In this document: piece after piece, positions 32,523 through 59,941 of the stretch
Layout: each line of letters starts with the position of its first letter
Numbering within the stretch: the first letter of the stretch is position 1
Source of the DNA: Alphaproteobacteria bacterium
Lineage (GTDB): Bacteria; Pseudomonadota; Alphaproteobacteria; Bin95
Assembly (NCBI GenBank): GCA_963665325.3
Contig: CAXXWS020000002.1
Span: 128,001-192,000 of the forward strand
Length of the DNA stretch: 64,000 nt
Direction: 5' to 3'
Notes under the pieces: model-generated
Database searches by the model: none
What the model saw: only the letters and a program-made list of their open reading frames with translations
Told to the model about the DNA's origin: nothing
Program-made: the position numbers and the translations under genes

Positions 32523-32613
32523 CACCGTTCCTGTTTCGGACTTCCAGCATGCCCAATCGACCAAGTGTTGTCGCGAAACAACGTGGTTGCAATCATACTA
32601 CTTCTCGACCGAC

Positions 32614-33591: not shown

Positions 33592-33615
33592 GTTGTTCTC
33601 CTAATGACTGGGACA

Positions 33616-34863
33616 CTAAATGTCGCACCACTCGCCATCCTCCCGCAGGACGACATTGTTGAAGAATTCCGGGAAGCGGCCGGTTTCGAATGAATGTATC
33701 GGAGTGAGGGCGCGGGGTGCAAGGGCGGCGGCGAAGCGTTGCAGGTCGGCGGCCGAGGCGTGGCCGGAGGTGTGGAGGACCTGCCACTCGATGCCATGCT
33801 GGCCGAGCCAGTCCAACACGCGGCGGGAGGAGTTCTCCTTCAGGTAGCCCCGCCACATCGAGTAGCTGAAGCCGGCGCCGTCCAACGCCGAGCGGACGCC
33901 ACCGTCGAGCCTCGCCATCGGACGGAACAGCATGACGGCGCGTTCGGCGAGGCCGGGCAGGTCTTCCGGATAAACGCGGTACCTGTGGTGCCGGTCGCGG
34001 TCCCGGAACAACTCCTTTTTCTTGATGAGCACTCGCTGGCTTTGCGGGATATAGACGCTGACCTCCGGCCAGTGCGATTGCGGGATGGTGTCCCGCCCCG
34101 TCGCTTCCAGCACCACCGCCGTGTAGAGGTCGATCAGGAGCACGCGGCCTGACTTCTTGGCGGCACGGAAGATCGTGACGATCCGGTCGATGTTCTGCGA
34201 GGAGGTCCAGACAAAGTGCATGCCCCCCGTCTGCCGAAAGGCCTCGACGAACCGTTCTTCGAGGTCCGACTCGGTCTCGAAGCCTTCCTCCGTGCCCGCC
34301 CGCCCGAGTGTCGTGCCCTCCATCAGCAGCACGTCGATGCCGGCGGGCGGGTCGCGGACCAGACGTTCGAACAGCGCCGCCTTGCGGCCGTGGGCGCGGA
34401 AGTCGCCGGAGTAGAAGACCCGTTTGCCGTCCGCTTCGACCAGCAGGGCGTAGGCGTCGAAGGCGCTGTGATCGACCAGAAAGGGCGTGACGCGGAACGG
34501 CCCGATCTCGACCGGCCGCCGGTCGGCGAGGAAATGCGGGTCGGTGAAGGCATGCCCGTTCGGCACCCACGCGCTCGCGGCCTTGAGGATGTTGTGCCCG
34601 GCTTCGCCGATCCACACCGGGATTTCCGGGCGGATATGCGCGGCCAGCCCGTAATGGTCCTGGTGGGCATGCGAGATCATGACGCCGAGCAGGCTGTCGT
34701 CGCGTTCCCGGAACCCGGGAACTTCGGGGAGCAGCGTCTCCTGCGCCTCGTCGGGCGCGTCGAGCGGCAGGCCGACATCGAGCACAATCCGCTTGCCCTG
34801 GGCCTCCGCCTCGATGCAGGTGCCGCCAATCTCCTGCGTGCCCCTGTGGATGCGTAGTCTCAT
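33616..34863 (-). CDS. Metallo-beta-lactamase/beta-CASP hydrolase, RNase J-like
   Basis: EIGGTCIE, SHAHQDH (HxHxDH), DHS, YSGDFR, MEGT, HTSGHA, PIH. Confidence 0.85.
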   Translation of the reverse strand: MRLRIHRGTQEIGGTCIEAEAQGKRIVLDVGLPLDAPDEAQETLLPEVPGFRERDDSLLGVMISHAHQDHYGLAAHIRPEIPVWIGEAGHNILKAASAWVPNGHAFTDPHFLADRRPVEIGPFRVTPFLVDHSAFDAYALLVEADGKRVFYSGDFRAHGRKAALFERLVRDPPAGIDVLLMEGTTLGRAGTEEGFETESDLEERFVEAFRQTGGMHFVWTSSQNIDRIVTIFRAAKKSGRVLLIDLYTAVVLEATGRDTIPQSHWPEVSVYIPQSQRVLIKKKELFRDRDRHHRYRVYPEDLPGLAERAVMLFRPMARLDGGVRSALDGAGFSYSMWRGYLKENSSRRVLDWLGQHGIEWQVLHTSGHASAADLQRFAAALAPRALTPIHSFETGRFPEFFNNVVLREDGEWCDI

Positions 34864-38821: not shown

Positions 38822-39985
38822 TCATGCCGCCGCGAGCAGTTGCGCCAGTTCGCCAAGGCCGATCGCCTCGACCCCTTCGCTCTTGAGGTAACGATCATCG
38901 CCCGAATAAACGACGAAGGAGCGCTCCGGTTCGAGGTCTTCGCGCGCATGGTGGAATCCCCTGTCGAGCCTTGGTGCCAAGCCGCGCTTAATTTCCACGG
39001 CCCACAGCCTTCCGCCCGGCATCTCCAGCACCAGGTCGATTTCAGCGCCGGCGGCAGTTCGGTAGAACCACGCCTTTGCCCGCTCCGGCGCCGCGCCAAG
39101 CAGATTTTCCAGCACGAACCCTTCCCAGCTTCCGCCGGCGACCGGATGGCCCAGAACCGCATCCCGGTCATCGAGGCCGAGCAGCGCGTGGACGATGCCA
39201 CTGTCGCGGACATAGACCTTCGGGGATTTCACCAGGCGCTTGCCGACATTGGCGTGGAAAGGCGGCAGGCGCCGCACCAGCAGGAGATCGACAAGCAGGT
39301 CGAGATAGCGGGCGATCGTCTTGCCATCGACGGCAAGGCCGCGTGCGAGATGGGCGGCGTTGAGCGCGGCGCCCTGCATGTGCGCGAGCATGGTCCAGAA
39401 GCGGCGCAACGTTTCCGCAGGCACGCGCGGCCCGAGTTGCGGGATGTCGCGTTCCAGGTAGGTGCGGACGAAATTCTCCCGCCAGACCGCGCTGGCGTCG
39501 TCGCTGTCGGCGAGAAAGCTGTCCGGGAATCCGCCCCGGATCCAGAGTTTCTCGCGCGCATCGCCATCGACTTCGAGAACGTTGAACGGCTCCAACTCGA
39601 CATAGGCAATGCGGCCGGCAAGGGATTCTCCCGATTGCCTGAGCAGGTCGATGGAAGCCGAGCCCAGCAACAGGAATCGGCCCGTCCGGATGTTACGGCG
39701 GCGGCCCTTGTCGATGAGGCCGCGAAGCGTCTGGAACAGCTCCGGCGCCCGCTGCACCTCGTCGAGGATGACCAGCCTGTCTTCATGCCCGGAGAGGTAA
39801 AGGGCGGCATCGCTCAGCTTCGCGCGGTCCGCGGCATCCTCAAGATCGAGATAGACGCTCGTCCGCTCTTCGGCGACGAAATGGGCCAGCGTAGTCTTGC
39901 CCGCCTGGCGTGGGCCGAGTACGGCTACGGCCGGAAAGCGATCCAGCCGGGCGCGAACGAGCAGCGATTTCCCGCGCGGTATCAT
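38822..39985 (-). CDS. AAA+ ATPase (AAA_14) with DUF4143 and C-terminal PD-(D/E)XK-like domain
   Basis: GPRQAGKTT, ILDEVQ, SGESLAGR, RGGFP, YLERD, KSPKVYVRDSG, EIDLV...AVEIK. Confidence 0.9.
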   Translation of the reverse strand: MIPRGKSLLVRARLDRFPAVAVLGPRQAGKTTLAHFVAEERTSVYLDLEDAADRAKLSDAALYLSGHEDRLVILDEVQRAPELFQTLRGLIDKGRRRNIRTGRFLLLGSASIDLLRQSGESLAGRIAYVELEPFNVLEVDGDAREKLWIRGGFPDSFLADSDDASAVWRENFVRTYLERDIPQLGPRVPAETLRRFWTMLAHMQGAALNAAHLARGLAVDGKTIARYLDLLVDLLLVRRLPPFHANVGKRLVKSPKVYVRDSGIVHALLGLDDRDAVLGHPVAGGSWEGFVLENLLGAAPERAKAWFYRTAAGAEIDLVLEMPGGRLWAVEIKRGLAPRLDRGFHHAREDLEPERSFVVYSGDDRYLKSEGVEAIGLGELAQLLAAA

Positions 39986-45034: not shown

Positions 45035-45658
45035 TCAGGCTCCGAGGCCGCCGGCGGAGCTGATGAAGTCGACCACGTCGGAGAGGCCTTCGCCGGTCTT
45101 GAGGTTGGTGAACACCCAAGGGCGGCCGCCACGCATGCGTTCAGTGTCGCTGCGCATGACATCGAGGTTCGCGCCGACGAGTGGGGCGAGGTCGATCTTG
45201 TTGATGACCAGAAGGTCGGAGCGAGTGATCCCCGGCCCACCCTTGCGCGGGATCTTTTCCCCGGCCGCTACGTCGATCACATAGATCGTAAGGTCGGCAA
45301 GTTCCGGGCTGAAGGTGGCTGCGAGATTATCGCCGCCCGACTCGATCAGGCAGAGTTCGGCCGAGGGGAAGCGGCTGCACATATCCGCTATCGCCGAGAG
45401 ATTGATCGAGGCGTCTTCGCGGATGGCGGTGTGCGGGCAACCGCCCGTCTCCACGCCCTCGATCCGCTCCGCCGGCAGGGCGCCCGCTTCCGTCAGGATG
45501 CGCTGGTCTTCCTTGGTGTAGATGTCGTTGGTAATGACGAACAGGTCGTGGCGGTCGCGCATGCTCTTGCAGAGCGCTTCGGCCAGCGCCGTCTTGCCGG
45601 AGCCGACCGGCCCGCCGATGCCGACGCGCAGCGGTCCGTGAGGTGAGGGAAGGGTCAT
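45035..45658 (-). CDS. ureG: Urease accessory GTPase
   Basis: [31 protein letters not shown]. Confidence 0.97.
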
Positions 45659-46332
45659 GATCTGAAGATCCTCGAATACTGGGTTTCGTGGCGCATGGAG
45701 AAGATTTCCGCCGCGGGAGCCGCCGTGCCCGCCTCTTCCGGGGGCGTTGCGGCTGCCATGGTGGCAGTATCGAGAATCGCGGGCTCAAGCTCGGCCGCGA
45801 TCCTCTGCCCGTCGGTCTGGCCGAGCGGCACGAGCCGGACGCCGGCCGAGACGATCATGGCGGCGAACGCGTGCAGGTAGCAGGCCAGCGCCGGCTCGAG
45901 CGCAACGCCATGCGCGGATGCAGCGAAACCGGCAGCGACCGAAAGCGGCGGGCGGTCTTCCAGAAGGCCAGCGAGCATGTGGATGGCGGGGTGCGGCCAG
46001 GCGGCGCCAAGCGTCTTCAGAAACGCCTCGCCCTGCCGTTCGGACTCCAGCGCGAACTCCGCGGTTCCTGTCCAGGCGCGGGCCTCGTCCGCAAGCGCCG
46101 CCGCCGCAACGGCGTCCGGCGCGGCCCTGTGGGCGGCGGCGAAGAAGACGCCATCCAGCTGTCCTGCGCCGTGCAGCAGGAGCCATTTCGTCCAGTCGGC
46201 TAGGCTCTCCCGGTCGCGGACCGTCCCCGCTTCAACGGCGTATTCCAGACCGTGGCTGTAGGCAAAGCCGCCGATCGGAAAGGCGGGCGAAAACCACGCC
46301 TGGAGCCGCAGGAGGTCGCCGCCGCCGGTCAT
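45655..46332 (-). CDS. ureF: Urease accessory protein
   Basis: [38 protein letters not shown]. Confidence 0.95.
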
Positions 46333-46835
46333 GGGTGCTTGTGTCCGTGGTCGTGCTCATGGCTGTGCCCGTGTCCATGGCTGTGGCCGTGGTCATGGCC
46401 TTGACCGGAATAGGCACCACCCTCGGGCTGGAAGGGCGCAACCGTTTCGGTGACGGAGCCTCCAAGGCTGCGCAGCATATCCGCCAGAACGTGGTCCGGG
46501 CGGATCAGGATCGCATCGGCACGGATCTCCGCCGGTGTGTGCCGGTTGCCGAGATGCCAGGCCAGACGCGCCGCCAGTTCCGGCGTCGCCGCCGTAATCC
46601 GGAGTATCGGCTCCGGCCTGGCGGCAACTTCCACCCAGGTCCCGTCAGTGCAGCGCAAGCCGTCGCCTTCCGCCATGGCCACGGCCTTGGGCAAGTCGAG
46701 CAGGATCGCCTCGCCGGCTGTGGTTTCCAGCTTGACGCGGCGCCGGTGCCGGTCGTCGAAGGCCAGGCTCACACGACCGGCCGCGTCCTCGTGCGGCCAA
46801 TGCCCCGCAGGGCGATGTTCGATAGCGCTACGCAT
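46329..46835 (-). CDS. ureE: Urease nickel metallochaperone
   Basis: AWHLGNRH, DHVL, PFQPEGGAY, His-rich tail. Confidence 0.95.
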   Translation of the reverse strand: MRSAIEHRPAGHWPHEDAAGRVSLAFDDRHRRRVKLETTAGEAILLDLPKAVAMAEGDGLRCTDGTWVEVAARPEPILRITAATPELAARLAWHLGNRHTPAEIRADAILIRPDHVLADMLRSLGGSVTETVAPFQPEGGAYSGQGHDHGHSHGHGHSHEHDHGHKHP

Positions 46836-46839
46836 CGGC

Positions 46840-47649
46840 CTAGAACAGGAAGTAGCGCTGCGCCATGGACAGCACCTCTGCCGGCTCGCAGGTAAGCAAC
46901 ACTCCGTCGGCCCGCACCTCGTAGGTTTCAGGGTCGATCTCGACATCGGGCATGAGTTCGTTCAGGACCATGTCTCCCTTTCCGATGGTTCGCGTGCGGC
47001 GAACGGCTTCCAGCCGCCGGCCGGTATCGAAGCCGGCGTCGAGGCCTGCCTCGCTGACGAAGGTAACGGACGTTGCTTGTCGCGCCCGCCCGAAGCTCGC
47101 AAACATCGGCCGGAAATGCTCGGGCTGCGGTGTCGGGATGGAGGCGTTGGGGTCTCCCATGACCGCCGCCGCTATCATGCCACCCTTCAGCACCAGGTCG
47201 GGTTTCACGCCGAAGAACGCTGGCGACCAGACGACAAGGTCTGCAAGCTTTCCGGCCTCGACCGACCCGATATGGTCCGCCATGCCGTGCGCGATGGCGG
47301 GATTGATCGTGTATTTGGCGATGTAGCGCCGGGCGCGCAGATTGTCGTTTTCGCCGCGCTCGCCCGCCAGCCGCCCGAATTGCCGCTTCATCTTGTCGGC
47401 GGTTTGCCAGGTCCGGATCGCCACTTCGCCCACCCGGCCCATCGCCTGGCTGTCCGAGGCGATGATCGAGAATGCCCCCATGTCGTGCAGGAGGTCTTCG
47501 GCGGCGATGGTCTCCTTGCGGATACGGCTCTCGGCAAACGCCACGTCCTCGGCGATGCGCGGATCCAGATGGTGGCAGACCATCAGCATGTCGAGATGTT
47601 CATCGACGGTGTTGACCGTGTAAGGGCGTGTCGGGTTGGTCGAGGAGGG
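46840..47649 (-). pseudogene. ureC: Urease alpha subunit, 3' part (interrupted)
   Basis: [43 protein letters not shown]. Confidence 0.95.
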
Positions 47650-47733
47650 TGAGTGTGCTCTCGGTATCTGATGGCGGGATGGTCACGTTGTTCGATGGTT
47701 TTCAGGCGTCGGGCCGGGCGTGACGGCGGGGGT

Positions 47734-47820
47734 GTCGGACGGCCGTCGGCGCGTCAAGCCGCTTCGCGGCTCCTGCGCTGCGCTCCGGCCCTTCGGGTGA
47801 CCCGCCGCCGTCCCTCCGAC
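47734..47820. other. Large branched hairpin in the non-coding end of the element
   Basis: 47734-47756 pairs with 47798-47820 (19/23), enclosing gccgc-ttc-gcggc and ccc-ttc-ggg mini-hairpins. Confidence 0.6.
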
Positions 47821-47895
47821 GGAGTGCATCCATGGCCGTAAGCAAGCTTCCGGCCACGGGCCGGCCGCTTTACGCAGTGTGACAATGGGAGCGGT

Positions 47896-47957
47896 GTTAC
47901 CCGTTACCGTTACCCTCTCTCCCTAGGGGTTCGAGGCGGTAACGGTTTTCGGTAACG
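47896..47957. repeat. Iteron-like GTTAC/GTAAC repeat cluster
   Basis: Three GTTAC (47896, 47903, 47909) and two GGTAACG (47938, 47951) around the palindrome ccctaggg at the helicase stop. Confidence 0.65.
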
Positions 47958-48921
47958 TGTCCCTGCGGTCGTTGCCGTTGAGGGCGGCGAGGCGGTATCC
48001 GCCTTCGGATGCGCGCTCGACGCGTCCTTCGCGGACGAGCCTGTGCAGCGCCTCGGCGACGGTTGCGGGCCGGGTTGCCGCGCGCTCGCGGATCCGGCGC
48101 TGGGAGAGCGGCGCGTCGGCGTCGGCGAGGGCCTGCAGGATGCGCCGTTCGGGGGTATCCGGCTCCGGCGCCTGGTCTTCCGGCGTCTCGCGCAACCGCA
48201 GGGCGGGGCGCTCGTCGTCGTCGGCGAGTTCGATCTCGAGGTCTTCGAGGCCAGGGGCGTCGCGATGCTCGACGGTCATGAGGATCTGGCGGTCTCGCCG
48301 GCGCAGGTACAGATTCGAATCGCCCCAGGCGTGAAGTTCGCTGCTGCCGCGCAGCGCCTGCCCGGGCCGGGAGCCGCCGCTCTTTCGTGCGTGATGGACG
48401 AGGAGGACGGCGGTTTCGAAGCGGCGCTGTATGTCGCGCAGGAAGCCCAGCATGGGGGCGACCTCGGCGACGGTATTTTCGTCGACGCCGTGCAGGCGCA
48501 CGAGGGGGTCGAGGACGACGAGGCGGGGTGAGACGCGCTCCACCGTCTCGACCAGGCGCTGGCGATCGGCGCGATGGTCGAGACGCAGCGTGGGCACGTC
48601 GATGACGGCGATGTCGAGGGTCTCGAACGCGGTGCCTGCCGCCTTTGCGATGCCCTGGAGGCGTGCGCGCACGATATGGCCGGCGTCCTCGGCGGCGAAC
48701 AGCAGCACGGGGCCGCTTGCGGCGGGACGGAAGTGGCGCAGGCAGGGGACGCCGGCGGCGACCGCGACGGCGATGTCGAGTGCGAGGAAGGATTTGCCGC
48801 ACTTGGGCTCGCCGCCGACGATGCCGACGCCCTGCTCGGACCACAACGCCTCGACCATCCAGCGGCGCGCCTGGGGGCGCTCTTCGAGCTCCGCCGGCGC
48901 CCGTGTCGGGAAGCCCTTCAC
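47923..48921 (-). CDS. RepA-like (AAA_25, RecA/DnaB superfamily) helicase with C-terminal winged HTH
   Basis: GGEPKCGKS, LVVLDPL, LVHHARK, LRGSSELHAWGD; C-terminal SQRRIRERAA...AEALHRLVREGRV; GTG coupled to the upstream stop. Confidence 0.8.
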   Translation of the reverse strand: MKGFPTRAPAELEERPQARRWMVEALWSEQGVGIVGGEPKCGKSFLALDIAVAVAAGVPCLRHFRPAASGPVLLFAAEDAGHIVRARLQGIAKAAGTAFETLDIAVIDVPTLRLDHRADRQRLVETVERVSPRLVVLDPLVRLHGVDENTVAEVAPMLGFLRDIQRRFETAVLLVHHARKSGGSRPGQALRGSSELHAWGDSNLYLRRRDRQILMTVEHRDAPGLEDLEIELADDDERPALRLRETPEDQAPEPDTPERRILQALADADAPLSQRRIRERAATRPATVAEALHRLVREGRVERASEGGYRLAALNGNDRRDTLPKTVTASNP

Positions 48922-49751
48922 CGCCGCGCCCTCCTCGGCTTGGCGGGTTCGCCCAGGGTCTCGATGAAGAGCTTCTCGTCGAGGACCTCGCGCTCCTTCT
49001 CGGCGGCGGCGGCGAGCAGGGCGTCGGCCATGACGGTGAGCGCCCGCGGGTTGCCGTCGGCATGGGCGACCAGGGTGTCCTTGAGGCCCGCGGTCATGAG
49101 GCCGGGATTGCCGGCCTGCTCGATCAGATGGTCGAGCAGGGCCGCGAGGTCGCCGGCCTCGGCCTTGGTCATGACCAGGCGCTGGCGGATGCGCGAGGCG
49201 ATGGGCTGCAGATCGGGCTGGCGGAGCTTGTCGAGCAGGCGCGTGTCGCCGGCGAGGACGACCGAGAGGATGGCGCGCGAGTCGAAGTCGGTCGAAGCCA
49301 GCAGGCGGATCTCGGAGAACACCGAGGGCAGCAGCTCCTGGGCCTCGTCGACGAGCACGACGGGGCGCATGCGGGTATCGTCGACATGGGCGAGCCAGCG
49401 CTCGCGCAGGCTTTTGAAGCTGGCCCAGCGGTTGTTGTACATCAGGTCGACGCCGAACATCTCGCCGATCTCGCGGTAGAAGTCGGACAGCCGGGAGGAG
49501 GGATGGGTGATGGCGGCGATGCTGAGCCCCTCGCAGCGGCCGAGACGGTCGGCGAGCAGGCGCAACGCCACACTCTTTCCGGCGCCGGGCTCGCCGGCGA
49601 TCAAGGCGAAGCCGCCCTGGCGCACCAGGTGGCGCTCGATCCTGAGGCAGAAGCTGTCGACGGCAGGCGTCGCCATGAGACTGTCGACCGGCAGGTCGGT
49701 GGCGAAGGGGTTCCACTTGAGCCCGTAGAAGGTGAGCAGTTCCCGGTTCAT
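48918..49751 (-). CDS. ExeA-like AAA ATPase (probable transposition helper)
   Basis: YGLKWNPF, GEPGAGKS, VVLVDEAQ, GNPRAL; ATGA-coupled to the transposase. Confidence 0.85.
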   Translation of the reverse strand: MNRELLTFYGLKWNPFATDLPVDSLMATPAVDSFCLRIERHLVRQGGFALIAGEPGAGKSVALRLLADRLGRCEGLSIAAITHPSSRLSDFYREIGEMFGVDLMYNNRWASFKSLRERWLAHVDDTRMRPVVLVDEAQELLPSVFSEIRLLASTDFDSRAILSVVLAGDTRLLDKLRQPDLQPIASRIRQRLVMTKAEAGDLAALLDHLIEQAGNPGLMTAGLKDTLVAHADGNPRALTVMADALLAAAAEKEREVLDEKLFIETLGEPAKPRRARR

Positions 49752-51223
49752 GGCGCATCTCCCCGATCTTCGTCCTCGCCCGGACCGGGCGTCTTGTCAT
49801 GGGGCAGCCAGGCCGGCGGCAGGCCGGTTGCGGCCTGGGCGTCGAGCATGCCCTTGAGCAGCGGCGGAAGTTCCCCCGTCCCCGCGCCGCCATTGCCATC
49901 GTTGCCGCCGGGGCCGGCGGGACGGCGCACGCCATCGGCGTTGCCGCGCTTGTCGAGGGGGTACAGCGTGCACAGGCGCTCGCCGCCTCGACCGTCGATC
50001 AGATCGACGCTGGCGAGGTTCCAGCGCGCGTAACGGATCCAGGCCTCGCGCAGGTGGCGCCACGGCTGTGGCACCTGGTAGCGGATGCCCTCGACCGAGA
50101 CGGTGCCGTCCGAGCGCCTGAGCGTGCGCTTCCTGGTGATGCGGAAGGCCGCCTTGAGCTCGGCCGAGCCGGGGCAGGATCTCGACGCGTCGACGCTCCC
50201 GGCCAGGCGTTGATGCGGCGTCATGCCGAGCTCGCGGTGCTTGCGGCGGTGATAGTCCTGCTCCAGCCAGGCGATGGTGGCGTCGTTGAGCATCTTCAAG
50301 GTAAGCGCGTCGACGCCTTCGAGCTGAGCCATCAGGCGCGATTCGACCGTGCCCCAGAACGACTCGATCTTGCCGTTCTGATGGGGGCTGTAAGCGAGCG
50401 TCGTGACCCCCGCGATGCCGAGCCGGTGCAACCCCTCCTCGACCTCGCCCGCGGTCATCGCCGCGCCGTTGTCGGTCAGCAGGGACCTCGGCAGACCGCG
50501 CTTCATGAAGGCCTGGCAAAGGCCGTGGACGAACACCTCGGCGGTCTCGGCGAGGTACCACTGAAGGTGGCAGCCGAGGCGCGAGTGGTCGTCGAGGAAG
50601 CCGAGCAGGATCGGCGTCTTCCACTCGCCCGAGGCGGTCAGCACGCGACGCTTGGCGCTGTGCATGTCGGCGTGCCACAGGGCGTGAGAGCGCGAGACCT
50701 CGTAGCTCAATACCTCGCGGGCTTCGACCGCCGGCCTGGCCTCGCTCTCATGCCACTTGCGCCGGCGCTTGCGTACCAGCCCGCGAGCCCGCATCGCCCG
50801 GGTCAGCGTCGCGTAGGACGGTATCGGGCCGAGCTCGGGATCGGCCTCGACCCGCGCGGCCAGATTCTCGTGATGAAGCTGCGCCGACCACGACGGATGC
50901 GCCCGGTACTGCTCGTGCAGCGCCTCGATCAGCGTCGGCGACATCGCGCGCGGGCGCCCGGCATCGGCGCGCGGGCGCCGCTTGAGCGCCCCCACCGGAT
51001 CGTTGTCCGCCGCCCGCGCCTGGTAGTACCAGCGCTCGATCGTGGACACCGCGAAGCGCACCCGGCCCTTGCCGGACGGGTGATCCCACTCGCGTTCGGC
51101 AAGCCGCTCAAGCTCGGCGTGCAGCCGCCCCGCCGGCGGCGGCGAGGCCAGAAGCGGCCCGACCACCGCGAAGCGCAACCGCGCCCACCGGTCGCGACGC
51201 TCGCTCCCGTCGTTGCTGTTCAT
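49748..51223 (-). CDS. DDE transposase/integrase (rve core, N-terminal HTH, Mu-like C-terminus)
   Basis: LWHAD, DDHSR, LLTDNGA, NGKIESFW, DGTVSVEGIRY. Confidence 0.92.
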   Translation of the reverse strand: MNSNDGSERRDRWARLRFAVVGPLLASPPPAGRLHAELERLAEREWDHPSGKGRVRFAVSTIERWYYQARAADNDPVGALKRRPRADAGRPRAMSPTLIEALHEQYRAHPSWSAQLHHENLAARVEADPELGPIPSYATLTRAMRARGLVRKRRRKWHESEARPAVEAREVLSYEVSRSHALWHADMHSAKRRVLTASGEWKTPILLGFLDDHSRLGCHLQWYLAETAEVFVHGLCQAFMKRGLPRSLLTDNGAAMTAGEVEEGLHRLGIAGVTTLAYSPHQNGKIESFWGTVESRLMAQLEGVDALTLKMLNDATIAWLEQDYHRRKHRELGMTPHQRLAGSVDASRSCPGSAELKAAFRITRKRTLRRSDGTVSVEGIRYQVPQPWRHLREAWIRYARWNLASVDLIDGRGGERLCTLYPLDKRGNADGVRRPAGPGGNDGNGGAGTGELPPLLKGMLDAQAATGLPPAWLPHDKTPGPGEDEDRGDAP

Positions 51224-51271
51224 TCCGGCATCCCCCTCGCTGCTTCGTGGAGGTGCCGATGATGCGGTGCC

Positions 51272-51886
51272 CTATCCGTGCATCATAGAAACGCTTTCTG
51301 CGGGCGAAGCCGGACCTGCGCCGAGCGCGCAAAAGCCGGTCCACGGCATCAGCCAGACCAGGCTCCGCAGCAGCCGCGAGCGGAAGCCACGGCCCCGCAT
51401 GATGCGCAGCAGCCGGCGCAGCGGCGCCTCTTCGGGCGGCGCCGCCAGCTCGCCCCGTCTCGCCTGCCACTCCCGGGTCAGCGGGAAGGCTTCCAGCCAC
51501 CAGCGCCGCCAGCGCTTCAGCGTCGAGGCCGGAACCCCGCACCGCCGCGCGATCGTCTGCAACCGCGCGCCGCCGGCCACAGCCAGCGCACTCACCACAA
51601 GGAACAGCGCCCCGACGTAAAAGCGCCTGCCGAAGAAACGCACCGACGGCGGCTTCACGCGGCGTCGGCACACCGAACAGCACAGGCTGAAGCGCCGAAC
51701 GTCGTTCCGAAGATTCGCCGCCAGACCGTGCGGCTTGCGCGGGTAGCTCGCGCTGTGAAGCGCGCCGCCGCAGCGCGGGCAACCCGCCGCCCGGCACGCC
51801 TCCGCCTCGGCCGCGTCGACCTGCTTCAGAAAATCCCAAACCCGGGCGTTGGAGAGATTGGAGTGCCGGAACAGCTTGTGCGACAT
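51272..51886 (-). CDS. Zn-ribbon plus HTH protein, first gene of the element
   Basis: CPRCG...CCSVC and LQTIARRCGVPASTLKRWRRWW. Confidence 0.7.
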   Translation of the reverse strand: MSHKLFRHSNLSNARVWDFLKQVDAAEAEACRAAGCPRCGGALHSASYPRKPHGLAANLRNDVRRFSLCCSVCRRRVKPPSVRFFGRRFYVGALFLVVSALAVAGGARLQTIARRCGVPASTLKRWRRWWLEAFPLTREWQARRGELAAPPEEAPLRRLLRIMRGRGFRSRLLRSLVWLMPWTGFCALGAGPASPAESVSMMHG

Positions 51887-52032
51887 TGGGGCCGTCTCAG
51901 GTTGATGTCACTGTCACCGAGACAAGCCCTCCGGCGGCCTTCTTGCAAGATCGCCGGGGGCACCCAATCCAAAACCTCGATTAATCCGAGCCGATCAGCC
52001 CCTGATCGCCGCTGAAAGCCTGCGCCCGCTCA

Positions 52033-52924
52033 AGGGGATCACATTGGCGAGCCCGCAGACCTTGATGATGTCCGGCGCGTGGCCGCCGCCGGCTCCTTCG
52101 GTATGAAAGGCGTGGATCGTGCGGTCCTTGAAGGCGGCGACGGTGTGCTCGACGAAGCCCGACTCGTTGAGTGTGTCGGTATGGATCATCACCTGGACGT
52201 CCATCGCGTCGGCGACGCCGAGGCAGGTGTCGATGGCCGCGGGCGTTGTGCCCCAGTCCTCGTGGAGCTTGAGCGCGCACGCGCCCGCCCGCACCTGCTC
52301 CTCCAGCGCGGCCGGAAGGCTTGCGTTGCCCTTGCCCGCGAAGCCCAGGTTCATGGCGAAGCCGTCGGCCGCCTCGATCATGCGCTGCAGGTGCCAGGGA
52401 CCCGGCGTGCAGGTCGTGGCATTGGTGCCGGTCGCGGGACCGGTGCCGCCGCCCAGCATCGATGTGATGCCGGATGCGAGCGCCTCCTCGATCTGCTGCG
52501 GGCAGATGAAGTGGATATGGCAGTCGAAGCCGCCGGCGGTGACGATCTTGCCTTCGCCGGCGACGATCTCCGTGCCCGGACCGATGACGATGTCCACCCC
52601 GTCCTGGATATCGGGGTTGCCCGCCTTGCCGACCGCCTGGATACGTCCGTCCCGGATGCCGATATCCGCCTTGACGACACCCCAATGGTCGAGGATCAGC
52701 GCATTCGTCACCACCGTGTCGGCGGAGCCCTCGGCCCGCGTCGCCTGCGACTGGCCCATGCCGTCGCGGATAACCTTGCCACCCCCGAATTTGACCTCGT
52801 CGCCATAGGCGGTGAAGTCGCGCTCGACCTCGATGAACAGCTCGGTATCGGCGAGGCGGACCCGGTCGCCCACGGTCGGACCGAACATGTCTGCATAGTC
52901 GCGGCGGGGGATCGCGTAGGCCAT
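52033..52924 (-). pseudogene. ureC: Urease alpha subunit, 5' part (interrupted)
   Basis: [48 protein letters not shown], ending at ...ANVIP. Confidence 0.95.
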
Positions 52925-52925
52925 G

Positions 52926-53243
52926 TCAGCCCTCCCGGTCGAGCGCGCCCATGACCCGCCCGTTGAAGCCGAGGGCGCGCCGGACGCCGCGATAGGGAAC
53001 CAGCGTCGCCAGGCGTGTTTGACCCGGCTCGAAGCGCATGGCTGTGCCGGCCGGGATGTCGAGGCGCCACCCCCGCGCCTGTTCTCGATCGAATTGCAGC
53101 GCCGGATTAACTTCGAAGAAATGGAAATGGCTGCCGACCTGAACAGGCCGGTCGCCGCCGTTCGCAACCTCGATCTCCACAGTCTCGAGGCCCCGGTTGA
53201 GCAGGAGCTCGCCCTCGGCAGTCATAATTTCCCCCGGAATCAT
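52926..53243 (-). CDS. ureB: Urease beta subunit
   Basis: [32 protein letters not shown]. Confidence 0.97.
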
Positions 53244-53253
53244 CGCATCCCCC

Positions 53254-53556
53254 TCAGCGGATCGGGTTGTGGACGGTGACCAGCTTTACCCCGTCGGGGA
53301 AGGTCGCCTCCACCTGCACGTCGTGGATCATCTCCGCCACGCCTTCCATCACCTGCTCCCGTGAGACGACATGGGCGCCGGCCTCCATCAGGTCGGCGAC
53401 GCGCCGCCCGTCTCGTGCGCCCTCCACCACGAAATCGGAGATCAGGGCAATGGCCTCCGGGTGATTGAGGCTGACGCCGCGCTCCAGCCGGCGACGGGCG
53501 ACGACGGCGGCCATGGCAACCAGCAGCTTGTCCTTTTCGCGTGGGGTAAGGCGCAT
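53254..53556 (-). CDS. ureA: Urease gamma subunit
   Basis: [33 protein letters not shown]; 100 aa. Confidence 0.97.
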
Positions 53557-53573
53557 GAGAAATCCGTTCTCCT

Positions 53574-54434
53574 TCAACAAAGCCAGACGCGCGGCGCCAG
53601 GGCCGGGCGGTCGAATACGGACGCGCGCAAGGCACCCAGAAACTCGGCGAGCTCTCGCTTGAACGCACCGCCCTCCGGAGCCAGGAACCGCACCGCCACC
53701 AATCCCCTGACCGCGCTGGCGCCCGCGAATGCCGACATGCCCGACAGCAAGCGGCGCAGGTCTTCCAGGCGTTCCGCGGCATCGGGCGCCGCGTAGATCA
53801 GCGTCGCCGACACGCGCGCTCCGCGAAGGCCCGCTTCCGCCGCTGCAGCAGACTCGAATGCGCCGCTGCCGATGCGAAGCGCGTCCCGCCAGACCGGCCG
53901 GCCGTCCCGGTCGATCCGCCAACGGTCGGCAAGGCCGCCGCTCACCATCCGCTCGCCATGCGCGGCGCGCCCGAACACAAGCGTCTCGACAGCCAGCAGC
54001 CGTGCATCGTCCGCCATGTCCACCTCGATCCGCCGCCGGAGCCGCGCGCCGTCGAAAAGGATCGTTTCCTGCGGCAGCCATTCGAGCGTGGTGCCGGGCC
54101 CGAGAGTGAGTCGTGTCGTCCACTCGGCCGGCGCGTCTATGGCGCGGTACACTTTCTCCGCCGCCTGGCCGGAAACAACGGCCTCCGCGCCAGGCCCGAC
54201 TGCGACACCGACTTCGCACCGGTCTCCCCCGGCAATGCCGCCCGCCAGATTGGCAATCACCGCTTCCGGGACGCCGTTCACGGCTCGCGGCGTCAGTATC
54301 CGCATCGGCGCTCGGGAATAGCGCTCGACAAGCGCACTGCGGCCGTCCCGCGCTTCGAAGCGCAGCAGGGCCCGACCCCGGCTCCGCTGGAGCACAAGGT
54401 CAGACGCTGAGGCGACGCTGCAGATCGTCTTCAT
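53574..54434 (-). CDS. ureD: Urease accessory protein
   Basis: [30 protein letters not shown]. Confidence 0.93.
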
Positions 54435-55095
54435 CGAGATCCTCCGGACGGCCTTGCATGACGACTTCGCCCCGGTCCATGACTACGAACATGTCGGCAA
54501 GTTCACGGGCAAAGTCGAAAAACTGTTCGACAAGCAGGATCGCGATATCGCCCCGGCCGGCCAGTTGTGAAATCGCCGCGCCGATCTGCTTGATGATCGA
54601 GGGCTGGATGCCTTCGGTCGGCTCGTCCAGCACCAGAAGACGCGGGCGGGTCGCCAGCGCGCGACCGATCGCCAGTTGCTGCTGCTGCCCGCCGGAGAGA
54701 TCGCCGCCGCGCCGGCGCAGCATGTCCCGCAATACGGGGAACAATGCGAAGATTTCTTCGGGTACCGTGCGCTCGGCGCGGGGCAGCATGCCGAGGCCGG
54801 TCTTCAGATTCTCCTCGACGGTGAGCAACGGAAACACTTCCCGCCCCTGTGGCACCAGCGCGATACCCGCGCGGGCGCGTTCGGCCGTCGTCAGCCGGGT
54901 TATTTCCGCACCTTCCCATTCCACGCTGCCCCGGCGCAGCGGCACATGGCCGACGAGTCCCCGGATCAGACTTGTCTTGCCGACGCCGTTGCGCCCCAGC
55001 AGGCAGGTCACCTCGCCTTTGCGCGCCGTGAGCGACACGCCCTTGAGCGCCTGGCTCGCGCCGTAATAGAGGTCGGCGTCCCGGACCGTCAGCAT
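54400..55095 (-). CDS. urtE: Urea ABC transporter ATP-binding subunit
   Basis: GRNGVGKT, LSGGQQQQLAI, DEPTEGIQPSII. Confidence 0.93.
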   Translation of the reverse strand: MLTVRDADLYYGASQALKGVSLTARKGEVTCLLGRNGVGKTSLIRGLVGHVPLRRGSVEWEGAEITRLTTAERARAGIALVPQGREVFPLLTVEENLKTGLGMLPRAERTVPEEIFALFPVLRDMLRRRGGDLSGGQQQQLAIGRALATRPRLLVLDEPTEGIQPSIIKQIGAAISQLAGRGDIAILLVEQFFDFARELADMFVVMDRGEVVMQGRPEDLDEDDLQRRLSV

Positions 55096-55110
55096 GGCTC
55101 CCCCATCGCC

Positions 55111-55872
55111 TCAACGCCCCAGATAGACTTCGATAACGGCTTCATTGGCGGATACAGCGTCGAGCGTTCCTTCCGCCAGCATCGCCCCCTCATGGAGCGC
55201 CGTTACCCGGCAATCGAGGGCGCGCACGAACTCCATGTCGTGCTCCACCACGATCACGGAGCGGTCACCGCCTGCGATGCGCTTCAACAGGCTCGCCGTC
55301 CGCATGGTCTCGGCATCGGTCATGCCCGCGGCAGGCTCGTCGATCAGCAGGATGCTGGGGTCCTGGACAAGCAGCATTCCGATTTCCAACCATTGCTTCT
55401 GCCCGTGGCTCAGCAGGCCGGCCCGGTCGTCGGCCCGGTCCCGGAGCGCGATCAGCTCCAGCACTTCTTCGATCCGTCGGCGCCGGTCGGACGACAGCCT
55501 TGCAAACAGCGTCCACCTAGCGCGGCGATCTGCCCGGCAGGCGAGCTCCAGGTTTTCGAACACGCTGTGCGCCTCGAACACGGTCGGCCGCTGGAACTTC
55601 CTGCCGATGCCGAGCCCGGCGATGGCGGCTTCGTCGAGCCTCGTCAGGTCGTGGCGGCCGTGCAACAGAACCTGCCCTTCATCCGGCCGCGTCTTGCCGG
55701 TAATGACATCCATCATTGTCGACTTGCCGGCGCCGTTAGGCCCGATGACAGCGCGCAGCTCGCCCGGCTCCAGATAGAGGCCGAGCCGGTTGAGCGCCTT
55801 GAAGCCGTCGAAACTGACGGTGACGGCATCGAGATAGAGCGCGGCGTTGCTGACTGAAGGATGCTCAACCAT
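55111..55872 (-). CDS. urtD: Urea ABC transporter ATP-binding subunit
   Basis: SFDGFKA, GPNGAGKS, GRKFQ, LSHGQKQWLEIG. Confidence 0.93.
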   Translation of the reverse strand: MVEHPSVSNAALYLDAVTVSFDGFKALNRLGLYLEPGELRAVIGPNGAGKSTMMDVITGKTRPDEGQVLLHGRHDLTRLDEAAIAGLGIGRKFQRPTVFEAHSVFENLELACRADRRARWTLFARLSSDRRRRIEEVLELIALRDRADDRAGLLSHGQKQWLEIGMLLVQDPSILLIDEPAAGMTDAETMRTASLLKRIAGGDRSVIVVEHDMEFVRALDCRVTALHEGAMLAEGTLDAVSANEAVIEVYLGR

Positions 55873-56962
55873 CGCTGCCCCGCCTTGCCTGCCAGCGGAC
55901 GCGCAGGCTCGCGATTTCTCCGAGAACGCCCTTGGGGACGAACAGGGTGACGGCGATGAACAGGCCGCCGAGCACGAACAGCCACATCTCCGGGGCGGCG
56001 CCCGTCAGGAAGGTCTTGGCGTAGTTGACGAGAACCGCCCCGAGCGCCGCGCCGATCAGCGTGCCCCGGCCGCCCACGGCCACCCAGATGACGATCTCGA
56101 TGGAGTTGGCGGGCGAGAACTCGCTCGGGTTGATGATGCCGACCTGGGGAACGTAGAGCGCCCCCGCTGCCCCGGCCATCATGGCCGAGACGGTGAAAAC
56201 GAGGATCTTGTAGTGCTCGGGCCGGTAGCCGAGAAAGCGCGTCCGCTGCTCCGCATCGCGCACCGCGACAAGCACGCGCCCGAATTTCCCGACCGTCATC
56301 CAGCGGCAAAGCAGGTAGCCCCCGGCCAGCGCAGCGGCGGACGCGAGCAGCAGGCCCGCGCGCATCCCGGCGCCCTTCAGGTCGTGACCGAACAGATCCT
56401 TGAAGTCGGTGAGTCCGTTATTGCCGCCGAAGCCCATGTCGTTGCGGAAGAAGGCGAGCATCAGCGCGAAGGTCATCGCCTGGCTGATGATCGACAGATA
56501 GACGCCGGTGACGCGGCTGCGAAAGGTGAGCCAGCCGAACAGGAACGCGAGCGCTCCGGGCACGGCCAGGCACATGGGGAGCGCGAACCAGGCCGAATCG
56601 AAGCCGTGCCAGTACCAGGGCAGTTCCTTCCAGTCGAGGAACACCATGAAGTCCGGCAGCACAGGATGCCCATAGACCCCGCGCTCGCCGATCTGGCGCA
56701 TCAGGTGCATGCCCATCGCGTAGCCGCCGAGCGCAAAGAACGCGCCGTGCCCGAGGCTCAGGATGCCGGCGAATCCCCAGACGAGATCGACGCTGAGCGC
56801 CAGCAGCGCGAAGCAGAGATACTTGCCGATGAGCCCGACCATGTAGTTGGGCACATGCAATGCCGAGCTTTCCGGCAGGGACAGGTTGAGCGCCGCCGCG
56901 CCGCCCGCCAGCACGGCGAGGGCCACCAGAAAGATGCGTCCCTTGAGGTCGAGCCACGCCAC
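55865..56962 (-). CDS. urtC: Urea ABC transporter permease
   Basis: WGFAGILSLGHG, LPDFM, GGNNGLTDF, VAVGGRGTL. Confidence 0.93.
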   Translation of the reverse strand: MAWLDLKGRIFLVALAVLAGGAAALNLSLPESSALHVPNYMVGLIGKYLCFALLALSVDLVWGFAGILSLGHGAFFALGGYAMGMHLMRQIGERGVYGHPVLPDFMVFLDWKELPWYWHGFDSAWFALPMCLAVPGALAFLFGWLTFRSRVTGVYLSIISQAMTFALMLAFFRNDMGFGGNNGLTDFKDLFGHDLKGAGMRAGLLLASAAALAGGYLLCRWMTVGKFGRVLVAVRDAEQRTRFLGYRPEHYKILVFTVSAMMAGAAGALYVPQVGIINPSEFSPANSIEIVIWVAVGGRGTLIGAALGAVLVNYAKTFLTGAAPEMWLFVLGGLFIAVTLFVPKGVLGEIASLRVRWQARRGSDG

Positions 56963-56965
56963 GGC

Positions 56966-58600
56966 TCAGAGCTCCGCTGCCCGGCCGCGCATGGCGAAGA
57001 GGCCCTGCGGACGCCGCTGGATGAACAGGATCAGGGCGACCAGCACGACGATCTTGCCGAGCACGGCGCCGGAGAAGGGTTCGATGAACTTGTTGACGAT
57101 GCCGAGCGACATGGCGCCGACGAGCACGCCCCAAAGATTGCCGACACCGCCGAACACGATGACCATGAAGCTGTCGACGATATAGGCCTGGCCCAGATTG
57201 GGGCTCACATTGTCGATCTGGCTGAGAGCGACGCCCGCCATGCCCGCCACGCCGGAACCGAGCGCGAAGGTCATGCAGTCCACATTGCGCGAGCGGATGC
57301 CCATGGCGTTGGCCATCGGGCGGTTCTGGGTAACCGCCCGCATTTCGAGCCCGAAGGTCGTGTAGCGGATGACAGCCATGACCGCGGCCAGCACGGCCAG
57401 CGAGAACAGGATGATCCAGATGCGGTTGTAGGTGATGGCCACGCCGCCGGCGAGCTCGACAGCGCCGCTCATCCACTCGGGATTGCCGACCTCACGGTTT
57501 GTTGGCCCGAAGATCGAACGGACCGCCTGGCGCAGGACGAGGCTCACGCCCCAGGTGGCCAGCAGGGTTTCCAGCGGGCGCCCGTAGAGCCAGCGGATGA
57601 CGGATCGTTCCAGACCGGCGCCGAGCCCCGCCGCAGCAAGGAACGCCACCGGCACCGCGACGGCAAGCGACAGGCCGAAAAGCTCCGGAGCAAAGGTGCG
57701 GAACAGCTCCTGCACGACAAAGGTGGCATAGGCGCCGACCATCACCATCTCGCCATGCGCCATGTTGATGACGCCCATGACGCCGAAAGTGATTGCGAGG
57801 CCCACCGCCGCCAACAGCAGGACCGAGCCCAGGCTGATGCCCTGGAACACCGCGCCGAACTGGCGGTAGAGCTCCAGCCGATTCTCGATCTCTTCCAGGG
57901 CCGTGCGCGCGGCTTCCCGGACGGCGGGGTTGGCTTGCGCATCGCCGACGACCCGCCCCAGGAGGGCGCGCGCCTCCGGCGCCTCGCTCGCGCCCAGCCG
58001 CCCGGCGGCCGCCACCCGGACCGGCGGAGGCGAATCCCGACCGATATCGACCGCCGCAAGCGCGAGCTCCATGGCGGCCCGCACATCCGCATCCGCTTCC
58101 CTGTCGAACGCCGCAGCCAGCAGCGGACGGAGGCCGGGATCGGCGGACTTCAACAGGCCGGCCGCTGCATCCAGGCGCTTTGCACGGTCGGGATGTGTGA
58201 GGTTGAGCCCGGCGAGCGCCGTGCGGATCGCCCGCCTCAGCCGGTTGTTGACCTTGACCTTCTTCAGCACCCTCGACCGCGCCGAACCGGCCTGCTCTCC
58301 GGAAACCGGGTCGAACAGGTCGAGTTCCCGGCCCCTCTTGGCCACGACGAACAGCCGCCCGTCTTCCTTGCGGTAGTAGAGCTTGCCGTCGACCATGGCC
58401 GAGAGCATCGGCGCAGCAGCCGGATGCCCGGACGCCGCGAGCGCCTCCACGCCCGCCATGCGCTTCTTGGCAGATTTCCCGGTCAGCAGCACGAGAGCCG
58501 CCTCGAATCCCTCGGACGCACTGCCGCCGCCGGGAGCCAGACAGGCTCCGGCGGCGAACAGCACCAGGATCAGACGGAAGATTGCGTTGCGAACCGCCAA
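56966..58600 (-). CDS. urtB: Urea ABC transporter permease (start approximate)
   Basis: NNRLR N-terminal domain, GLAITFGVMGVINMAHGE, LYGRPLETLLATWG. Confidence 0.93.
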   Translation of the reverse strand: MAVRNAIFRLILVLFAAGACLAPGGGSASEGFEAALVLLTGKSAKKRMAGVEALAASGHPAAAPMLSAMVDGKLYYRKEDGRLFVVAKRGRELDLFDPVSGEQAGSARSRVLKKVKVNNRLRRAIRTALAGLNLTHPDRAKRLDAAAGLLKSADPGLRPLLAAAFDREADADVRAAMELALAAVDIGRDSPPPVRVAAAGRLGASEAPEARALLGRVVGDAQANPAVREAARTALEEIENRLELYRQFGAVFQGISLGSVLLLAAVGLAITFGVMGVINMAHGEMVMVGAYATFVVQELFRTFAPELFGLSLAVAVPVAFLAAAGLGAGLERSVIRWLYGRPLETLLATWGVSLVLRQAVRSIFGPTNREVGNPEWMSGAVELAGGVAITYNRIWIILFSLAVLAAVMAVIRYTTFGLEMRAVTQNRPMANAMGIRSRNVDCMTFALGSGVAGMAGVALSQIDNVSPNLGQAYIVDSFMVIVFGGVGNLWGVLVGAMSLGIVNKFIEPFSGAVLGKIVVLVALILFIQRRPQGLFAMRGRAAEL

Positions 58601-58622
58601 GGCTCCACACCTCGCATCGAGG

Positions 58623-58651
58623 AAAAATTGCGGCGGCCGAAGCCGCCGCAA
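58623..58651 (-). terminator. Stem-loop between urtA and urtB (attenuator or mRNA stabiliser)
   Basis: ttgcggcggc-ttcg-gccgccgcaa followed by TTTTT on the minus strand. Confidence 0.65.
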
Positions 58652-58657
58652 TCCCGA

Positions 58658-59941
58658 TCAGAACATCGGCTTTTCGCAGTTGCCGCAGACCCAGGGATAG
58701 GTCCAGTCCGCGGTGAGCCTGGCGCTTTCCGGAATATAGTCGGACCAGGCATCGCCTACGACCGGGCCGTCGGTCTGCCAGACGATCTCGAACTGCCCGT
58801 CGTCCTGCACCTCGCCGATCAGCACCGGCTTGGAGAGGTGGTGGTTGACATTCATCAACGCCGTGGTGCCGGTAAGCGACTTGGCGGTCTGGCCGTACAT
58901 GGCCTGCCGGACCGCATCGACATCGGTGGTTCCGGCCTGCTTCACAGCCTGCGCCCACATCCTGAAGCCGATATAGTGGGCCTCCATCGGGTCGTTGGTG
59001 ACACGGTCCTCATCGCCGATGAACGCATGCCATTTCTCGATGAATGCCTCATTCTCGGGCGTCTCGACCGACATGAAGTAGTTCCATGCGGCGAGATGGC
59101 CGACCAGTGGGCTGGTATCGATGCCTGCAAGCTCCTCCTCGCCGACCGAGAACGCGACCACGGGCAGGTCTTCGGCCATCACGCCCTGGTTCGCCAGTTC
59201 CTTGTAAAAGGGCACATTGGCGTCGCCGTTGATCGTCGAGACGATGGCGGTCTTCTTGCCTTCGCTGGCGAAGGACCGGACCTTCGAGACGATGGTCTGC
59301 CAGTCGGAATGACCGAAGGGCGTGTATTCCTCAAGGATGTCCTCGTCGGAAATGCCCCTGGAATGCAGGAAGGCGCGCAGGATCTTGTTGGTCGTGCGCG
59401 GATAGACATAGTCGGTGCCGAGCAGGGCGAAGCGCTCGGCGCTGCCGCCGTCCTCGCTCATCAGATATTCGACGGCCGGAATTGCCTGCTGGTTGGGCGC
59501 CGCTCCCGTATAGAAAACGTTGCGGGAGGACTCCTCGCCCTCATACTGGACCGGATAGAACAGGAGGCCGTTCAACTCCTCGAACACCGGCAGCACCGAC
59601 TTGCGGCTGACCGAGGTCCAGCAGCCGAAGATGACGGCGACCTTGTCCTTCTCGATCAGCTCGCGCGCCTTCTCGGCGAAAAGCGGCCAGTCCGACGCCG
59701 GATCGACCACGACAGGCTCCACCTGCTTGCCGAGCAGGCCGCCAGCCTTGTTGACGTCATCGATGAGCATCAGCATGGCGTCTTTCAGCGTCGTCTCGCT
59801 GATCGCCATCGTGCCCGAAAGGGAATGCAGGATTCCGACCTTGATCGTCTCGGCCATCGCAGGCGCCGCCGAGACCATTGCCGCCCCGGCGAAAAGGCCG
59901 GCTGCCGCCAGGCCCCGAATGCGGCTCGTCATCGTCTTCAT
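58658..59941 (-). CDS. urtA: Urea ABC transporter substrate-binding protein
   Basis: GILHSLSGTMAISE, FGCWTSVSRK, YPVQYEG, DYVYPRTTN. Confidence 0.95.
   Translation of the reverse strand: MKTMTSRIRGLAAAGLFAGAAMVSAAPAMAETIKVGILHSLSGTMAISETTLKDAMLMLIDDVNKAGGLLGKQVEPVVVDPASDWPLFAEKARELIEKDKVAVIFGCWTSVSRKSVLPVFEELNGLLFYPVQYEGEESSRNVFYTGAAPNQQAIPAVEYLMSEDGGSAERFALLGTDYVYPRTTNKILRAFLHSRGISDEDILEEYTPFGHSDWQTIVSKVRSFASEGKKTAIVSTINGDANVPFYKELANQGVMAEDLPVVAFSVGEEELAGIDTSPLVGHLAAWNYFMSVETPENEAFIEKWHAFIGDEDRVTNDPMEAHYIGFRMWAQAVKQAGTTDVDAVRQAMYGQTAKSLTGTTALMNVNHHLSKPVLIGEVQDDGQFEIVWQTDGPVVGDAWSDYIPESARLTADWTYPWVCGNCEKPMF

Follow-up and report, generated by a model that had tools for sequence, protein, structure and literature searches.

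A small transposon in an alphaproteobacterial genome carries what appears to be a replication module of its own. The element, which has a DDE transposase and the size of an insertion sequence, ends in a RepA-like helicase gene, a set of opposed hexamer repeats at the stop codon of that gene and a branched stem-loop. Taken together, this helicase–origin–priming module on a small transposon is real, conserved and apparently undescribed: our literature search, with subscription journals, ISfinder/TnCentral and bioRxiv supplements outside its scope, found no description of an IS-sized DDE transposon with a helicase–iteron–primase module. The explanation we favour, at a probability of roughly 0.6, is that a self-loading helicase origin at the right end amplifies an excised copy of the element, which would make it a minimal replicon in the style of staphylococcal satellites. 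The features discussed here lie in a stretch of 64,000 nucleotides, the whole of which we call the window; statements on published systems refer to the accessible parts of the sources cited.

47650..52032, minus strand: entire transposon (4,383 bp) with TG..CA ends, made up of a Tn6049-like backbone and the helicase-origin module
51272..51886, minus strand: HTH-containing Cys-rich ORF; identity to the first Tn6049 ORF 40%, likeness to a DUF6431 protein weak
49748..51223, minus strand: DDE (rve) transposase, about 50-51% identical to Tn6049 TnpA
48918..49751, minus strand: AAA_22 (ExeA-like) transposition ATPase, 51% identical to the Tn6049 ATPase
47923..48921, minus strand: RepA-like (SF4, AAA_25) helicase with C-terminal winged helix, 332 aa (Pfam, PDB profile match, fold)
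47989..48156, minus strand: winged-helix domain, residues 256-311 (AlphaFold model)
48067-48069, minus strand: codon 285, start of the recognition helix and predicted specificity position (model and covariation)
47896..47956, no strand: putative origin, three GTTACC (47896-47914), a 23-bp spacer and two inverted copies (47938-47956)
47728..47867, minus strand: branched stem-loop, conserved, in the primase slot of sister elements
47650..47698, no strand: right end of the element, read from the sequence: the TG terminus plus a pair of 16-bp repeats (47659-47674 and 47683-47698; 11 of 16 positions identical)
46840..47649, minus strand: 3' part of host ureC, the target gene (NCBIfam urease alpha); frame continuous across the insertion site
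52033..52924, minus strand: 5' part of host ureC, the target gene (NCBIfam urease alpha)

A 4-bp duplication, AGGG (47646-47649 and 52033-52036), flanks the element, whose ends are short, imperfect and inverted; those of multi-copy relatives match them. Similar right ends recur in relatives, and the two 16-bp repeats are likely candidates for transposase sites. The four minus-strand ORFs overlap or are closely spaced, and run from the Cys-rich HTH protein through the DDE transposase and the AAA_22 ATPase to the helicase, which comes last. No conjugation module was found inside the element, which holds these four ORFs only, and delimited relatives measure 4.4-5.3 kb. Judged by gene homology and ends, the element belongs with Tn6049 of Cupriavidus metallidurans CH34, which has the same order of ORF, transposase and ATPase (40, 51 and 51% identity), TG..CA ends, a 4-bp duplication (available text of PMC4739549) and multiple copies. 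In contrast, the fourth gene of Tn6049 is a 71-aa ORF; it lacks helicase, iteron arms and primase, and is 3.5 kb long against 4.4-5.3 kb for helicase-bearing elements. Two other assignments were rejected. The transposase scored 124 bits with the IS481 model (NCBIfam NF033577), under the cut-off of 224, and 45 bits with the IS21 IstA model (NF033546; cut-off 160), the ATPase having no IstB model match.

The insertion splits ureC, and this host copy is probably urease-negative; apart from the split, the urease and urea-transport gene cluster (window 45035-59941) looks intact. Elsewhere in the window, an AAA_14 + DUF4143 ATPase gene (38822-39985) has a fumarate-reductase-like cluster on one side and a hydrolase gene on the other, and GC content drops to 50-59% at 32000-34000, compared with about 68% elsewhere. 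A search of 47500-52200 against Rfam, with E up to 1, gave zero matches.

The last ORF of the element has, on its predicted structure, the RecA-type fold and, in its sequence, the motifs of RepA/DnaB-type SF4 helicases. It matches AAA_25 in Pfam (E 5e-36) and RSF1010 RepA in a PDB profile search (E 1e-11), and RSF1010 RepA is also its closest fold (Z 23.5, rmsd 2.4 over 216 residues), with RadA and Twinkle next (Z 20.9). An SF3 or SF6 AAA+ motor was considered and rejected, as the top fold matches are RecA-type. The AlphaFold model used was built from 93 sequences (pLDDT 90.9); an earlier one, from 40 close relatives, was discarded at pLDDT 57. Motifs named in a previous reading made from sequence only (GGEPKCGKS, LDPL, HHARK and RGSS) are present in the ORF, and K43, E78, D138, H176, H177, R191 and R220 are invariant in 35 of 35 rows; we take the motifs to be the Walker A, catalytic Glu, Walker B, His and Arg motifs. 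The same sequence-only reading claimed a C-terminal winged HTH, and this is borne out by HTH models at residues 258-309 and by a structure model with helices at 257-267, 274-281 and 285-297 and a two-strand wing. An Atlas search with the winged helix returned unnamed clusters, among which MarR-like leads were weak. Helicase relatives made up 7,823 of 8,000 scored candidates, with full-length forms down to about 40% identity. Among the matches listed from phage and plasmid collections, identity was 26-32%, and some distant relatives exist as fusions with RepB-primase or Prim-Pol domains.

A genome scan matched at least 506 helicase relatives, of which the best 79 loci (about 80) were analysed. 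This sample is anchored on the helicase and, with the window, falls into 38 clusters. The best 79 of at least 506 represent about 33 assemblies and seven phyla, with 72 loci in Pseudomonadota. Within them, a transposition ATPase lies directly upstream of the helicase in 77 and a transposase was matched in 75, two of the remaining four being cut by contig ends. Seen from the helicase side, the gene is not the sporadic cargo that had been named as a possible outcome: it follows the transposition ATPase in 77 of 79 loci, and dN/dS against the window helicase is 0.15-0.36 in 11 pairs, which points to purifying selection. In L056 and L071, both with broken helicases, the helicase–repeat–stem-loop module stands without an adjacent transposase or ATPase.

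Three backbones carry the module: the Tn6049-like one, a second type with ATPases only 25-29% identical to that of the window, and a DUF6431 type. The elements move as a unit, with up to 14 copies in one genome within the best 79 of at least 506 relatives. Target duplications, scored in 46 copies, were of 5 bp in 27, of 4 bp in 13 (the window included) and of other kinds in three, an end being missing in the last three. The module is always terminal: about 1.1 kb at most separates it from one end of the element. At L012, two members of the family that differ in backbone and repeat type are oppositely oriented and separated by about 1 kb; their genome has 14 and 8 copies in the sample.

At the 3' end of the helicase gene, GTTACC starts at 47896, 47903 and 47909 on the plus strand and, inverted, at 47938 and 47951, and CCCTAGGG (47921-47928, the sole copy in the window) overlaps the stop codon. 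This confirms the three GTTAC and two inverted repeats around CCCTAGGG that had been described from the sequence, and all five extend to the hexamer GTTACC. A segment of 61 nt contains five of the 22 GTTAC in the window (Poisson probability about 1e-11 for one stretch and about 6e-8 window-wide, for a motif picked post hoc), a clustering far beyond chance with the post hoc choice allowed for. One check proposed at the time was whether inverted repeats persist at the 3' end of the helicase gene in homologous elements, and they do so in 35 of the 38 clusters (79 loci, the best of at least 506, and the window). The exceptions are L068, interrupted by another element, L071, whose spacer is deleted, and L072, which is degenerate. 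The spacer spans 18-25 bp with a mean GC of 0.64 (33 clusters measured). In eight elements checked, the matching hexamers cluster at the repeat site, with at most three stray copies elsewhere. The repeat segment of the window folds as DNA (z -2.45). A conserved hairpin in the spacer was rejected, since across 33 clusters the spacer by itself gives no fold (mean z -0.12), and a promoter and terminator scan returned neither a terminator-like site nor a sigma-70 promoter.

The spacer centre (47921-47928 in the window, and its counterparts in relatives) is usually a pyrimidine run, then TA or TT, then AG or AAG, and is often palindromic; it is a candidate melting or primase start site. At about 7060-7100 of L068, a type-B element is broken at the repeats by another element. 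The protein P0002 is identical to the helicase of the window as far as the repeats and differs beyond them, which suggests a similar insertion, and the origin may be an insertion hot spot.

The repeats also co-vary with the winged helix, a second relationship that had been put forward for checking: the variable base of the repeat tracks residue 285, with which the recognition helix begins in the structure model. The repeat could be read from the tail peptide in 97 of 119 close proteins (22 were unreadable), and Arg-Pro went with GTTACC in 57/57, Arg-Ala with GTTTCC in 12/12, and Arg-Asn or Arg-His with GTTCC in 28/28. Joining these 97 proteins with 34 locus clusters (L056, L068, L071 and L072 excluded) gave 131 rows, some of which duplicate proteins. 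Here Pro at 285 accompanies GTTACC (61/61), Ala accompanies GTTTCC (14/14), and Asn (28/28) and His (24/24) accompany GTTCCC; Lys occurs in one row, with a C-type repeat, and Thr is non-predictive, with three repeat types in three rows. Column 285 holds 1.36 of the 1.40 bits on the repeat base, and the next column, 308, holds 0.72 though it is nearer the repeats. On the helicase tree, independent pairs with none opposite number eight (p 0.008), six (p 0.03) and four (p 0.125). Direct readout of the base by residue 285 is likely rather than proven, because block exchange of helix and repeats may explain these pairs and the winged-helix tree (53 columns), with one supported independent pair per contrast, has low power.

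Beyond the repeats lies a slot with alternative occupants. In 10 clusters (domain scan on six) a DUF3991-Toprim gene directly follows the repeats, and the acidic motifs are intact in all 10; from the domain we infer that the proteins are primases. Plasmid relatives of the protein are often fused to MobV relaxases, and a PDB sequence search with an element primase returned nothing significant. In 15 clusters, including the window and two partial cases, the slot holds a branched stem-loop of 140 nt. Nine clusters have neither, four are unscorable and none has both (Fisher p 7e-4, uncorrected for kinship, with four changes on the tree). The earlier remark that no primase is visible was right for the window element, but sister elements carry a putative one; the stem-loop in the same slot partly explains the absence. 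Two side cases depart from this scheme: L064 has a NikA-like (mobilisation) ORF after the repeats, in place of the primase (3264-3731), and L074 has another stem-loop in the slot, with GCGAAGCG (about 7190-7260), that the stem-loop model does not match.

Double changes in the stem-loop occur in 7 of 46 pairs (12 of 15 aligned), a level reached by one of 500 shuffles. A core of 30-50 nt matches 24 plasmid records weakly (best E 3e-3). In seven of nine contexts inspected, the plasmid look-alikes stand 42-91 bp before an opposite-strand gene, and the neighbours (DUF736 three times, a zincin-like protein, DUF2493 followed by ssb, and two hypotheticals) are presumably leading-region genes. Neither DUF736 nor ArdC is named in the accessible part of the preprint 10.1101/2023.02.15.528439. 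Given that Frpo promoters form such stem-loops (PMC9849209, in the text available), a single-strand priming signal or promoter is a reasonable candidate role for this one. The likeness to Frpo/ssi is one of layout: both have a long stem-loop with TTGAC in the stem. Unlike Frpo/ssi, the family stem-loop shows no canonical -10 box in a promoter scan, and only its 30-50-nt core is common to plasmids.

The module appears to be an option of the transposon backbone. Tn6049 itself has no helicase and is present in 12 copies in the CH34 genome (available text of PMC2864759), and the table of Tn6049 relatives in the supplement of PMC3414803 (sheet S5, the part available) has no helicase or primase and a variable fourth slot. 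The helicase is absent from all 24 plasmid records that contain a related transposase, so the module is optional. On the ATPase tree, three Tn6049-like elements without helicase nest inside helicase-bearing backbone A, which fits loss, in a helicase-anchored and thus biased sample. Directly behind the 71-aa ORF of Tn6049 (L001, about 7527-7560) lies a hairpin whose arms, GTAAC and GTTAC, are in the order opposite to that of the family repeats; it is probably a terminator and possibly a relic. The orphan ATPase transposon Tn6049 may be a stripped form of the helicase-bearing elements.

SaPI and SCC elements use site-specific recombinases, not DDE transposition, and RSF1010 uses a separate initiator, RepC. 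To our knowledge, RSF1010 RepA has no winged helix. The layout follows that of SaPI replicons, whose Reps use a C-terminal winged helix to bind opposed iterons of 5-6 nt immediately past the rep gene (PMC9371898, text available). SaPI Rep-ori and SCCmec Cch2 share with the family a winged-helix helicase, opposed iterons after its gene and an adjoining primase (accessible text of PMC9371898 and PMC7581432). However, as described there, their helicases are SF3 or SF6 rather than RepA-like SF4, their origins, with 6-12 iterons, are AT-rich at the centre as opposed to the 64% GC spacer of the family (33 clusters), and their primase lies upstream instead of downstream. RSF1010 (IncQ), the source of the closest solved fold, likewise combines helicase, primase and hairpin priming sites (PMC4434180, part available), although its primase is of the archaeo-eukaryotic type and that of the sister elements is Toprim. 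Among DDE-type ICEs, the circular form of TnGBS replicates and, in Mycoplasma ICEs, a putative single-strand origin is flanked by the transposase gene and the terminal repeat; unlike the window element, these ICEs are large and conjugative, with a Mutator-like transposase, 8-9-bp duplications and a plasmid-type replicase. These points are from the available text of PMC3942029, which mentions neither helicase nor primase.

In the mechanism that we propose, the winged helix would bind the inverted hexamers at the stop codon of its own gene, with residue 285 reading the variable base, a step strongly suggested by the covariation. From what is known of the family, the helicase would then load itself at the repeats and unwind DNA as a RepA/DnaB-type ring. 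Priming would come from the adjoining DUF3991-Toprim protein or, in elements like that of the window, from the stem-loop, which in single-stranded form would be recognised by the RNA polymerase or primase of the host. If it is oriented as in the plasmid look-alikes, the stem-loop would point back into the element, so that one primer could copy nearly all of it. The substrate, in the least certain step, would be an excised circular intermediate that is amplified and then inserted by the DDE transposase and the ATPase. The module would be an optional, swappable booster, dispensable for transposition. The origin first suggested from sequence stands in so far as the repeats are kept and co-varying and the helicase is not sporadic; against it, the backbone family transposes without the helicase. 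Also counter to our explanation are the multi-copy state of helicase-less Tn6049, a spacer that is not AT-rich, nine clusters with neither primase nor stem-loop, and the lack of a circle junction: among 83 pattern hits in 82 assembled loci and the window segment, judged by eye, none was truly end-to-end.

That last result would also be expected if the module worked in place, restarting or branch-migrating the strand-transfer fork in copy-out or cointegrate transposition, where it would replace host restart proteins and form no free replicon. We consider this unlikely, though it accounts for the constant position of the module within about 1.1 kb of one end and is in keeping with RadA and Twinkle as next fold matches (Z 20.9). 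Two ATPase–helicase read-through fusions that hold both domains whole (P0272 and P0280) could likewise speak for it, but the other seven of the nine inspected look like frameshift artefacts. A single helicase clade on three backbones, two of them with ATPases only 25-29% identical to the window's, argues against a specific helicase partnership, and opposed iterons with a fixed spacer form an initiation layout.

The module might instead be a hitch-hiker, a fragment of a satellite or plasmid replicon captured in the fourth slot of Tn6049-like elements, with the covariation reflecting linkage. That slot is variable in Tn6049 relatives (PMC3414803 supplement, part available), distant helicase relatives are fused to RepB-primase or Prim-Pol domains, two of 79 loci have the module without an adjoining ATPase, and the recognition helix is about 100 bp from the repeats. 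Yet linkage would not confine the signal to column 285 over columns nearer the repeats, and some Ala-type elements retain an old-type outer repeat with the inner ones switched. Purifying selection, invariant catalytic residues and the nesting of helicase-less elements in backbone A, which fits loss in a biased sample, also count against capture, and we judge it improbable. Slightly less probable still is a purely regulatory role, with the repeats as an operator or transcript hairpin through which the winged helix would regulate read-through or the primase gene that follows, and no origin. The repeats do stand directly before the primase gene in 10 clusters, and the window segment folds (DNA z -2.45), but they persist in 15 stem-loop clusters and in nine with neither, the spacer shows no fold of its own (mean z -0.12 over 33 clusters), the scan found no terminator-like site and the intact helicase is left unexplained.

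Extended to the whole family, amplification of an excised copy would imply a widespread, undescribed class of IS-sized DDE transposons that act as transient replicons, with an SF4 self-initiator, a one-residue origin code and a Toprim primase exchanged freely with a single-strand, promoter-like hairpin. We put this forward tentatively, at a little under even odds. The established view is that small bacterial DDE transposons depend on the replication proteins of the host to be copied. Here, a multi-copy family in about 33 assemblies and seven phyla (best 79 of at least 506 relatives) retains at one end a helicase together with a putative origin that matches it and a candidate priming device. 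Among DDE elements, replicating circles are already known from large conjugative ICEs of the TnGBS type (PMC3942029, text available). What the small elements offer is a likely one-residue, one-base recognition code, a possible self-loading SF4 initiator and a natural exchange of a primase gene for a DNA priming signal. If the proposal is true, the one-residue code would let co-resident elements replicate independently, and the elements would bridge insertion sequences, satellites and plasmids, providing a tunable replicon of four to five kb.
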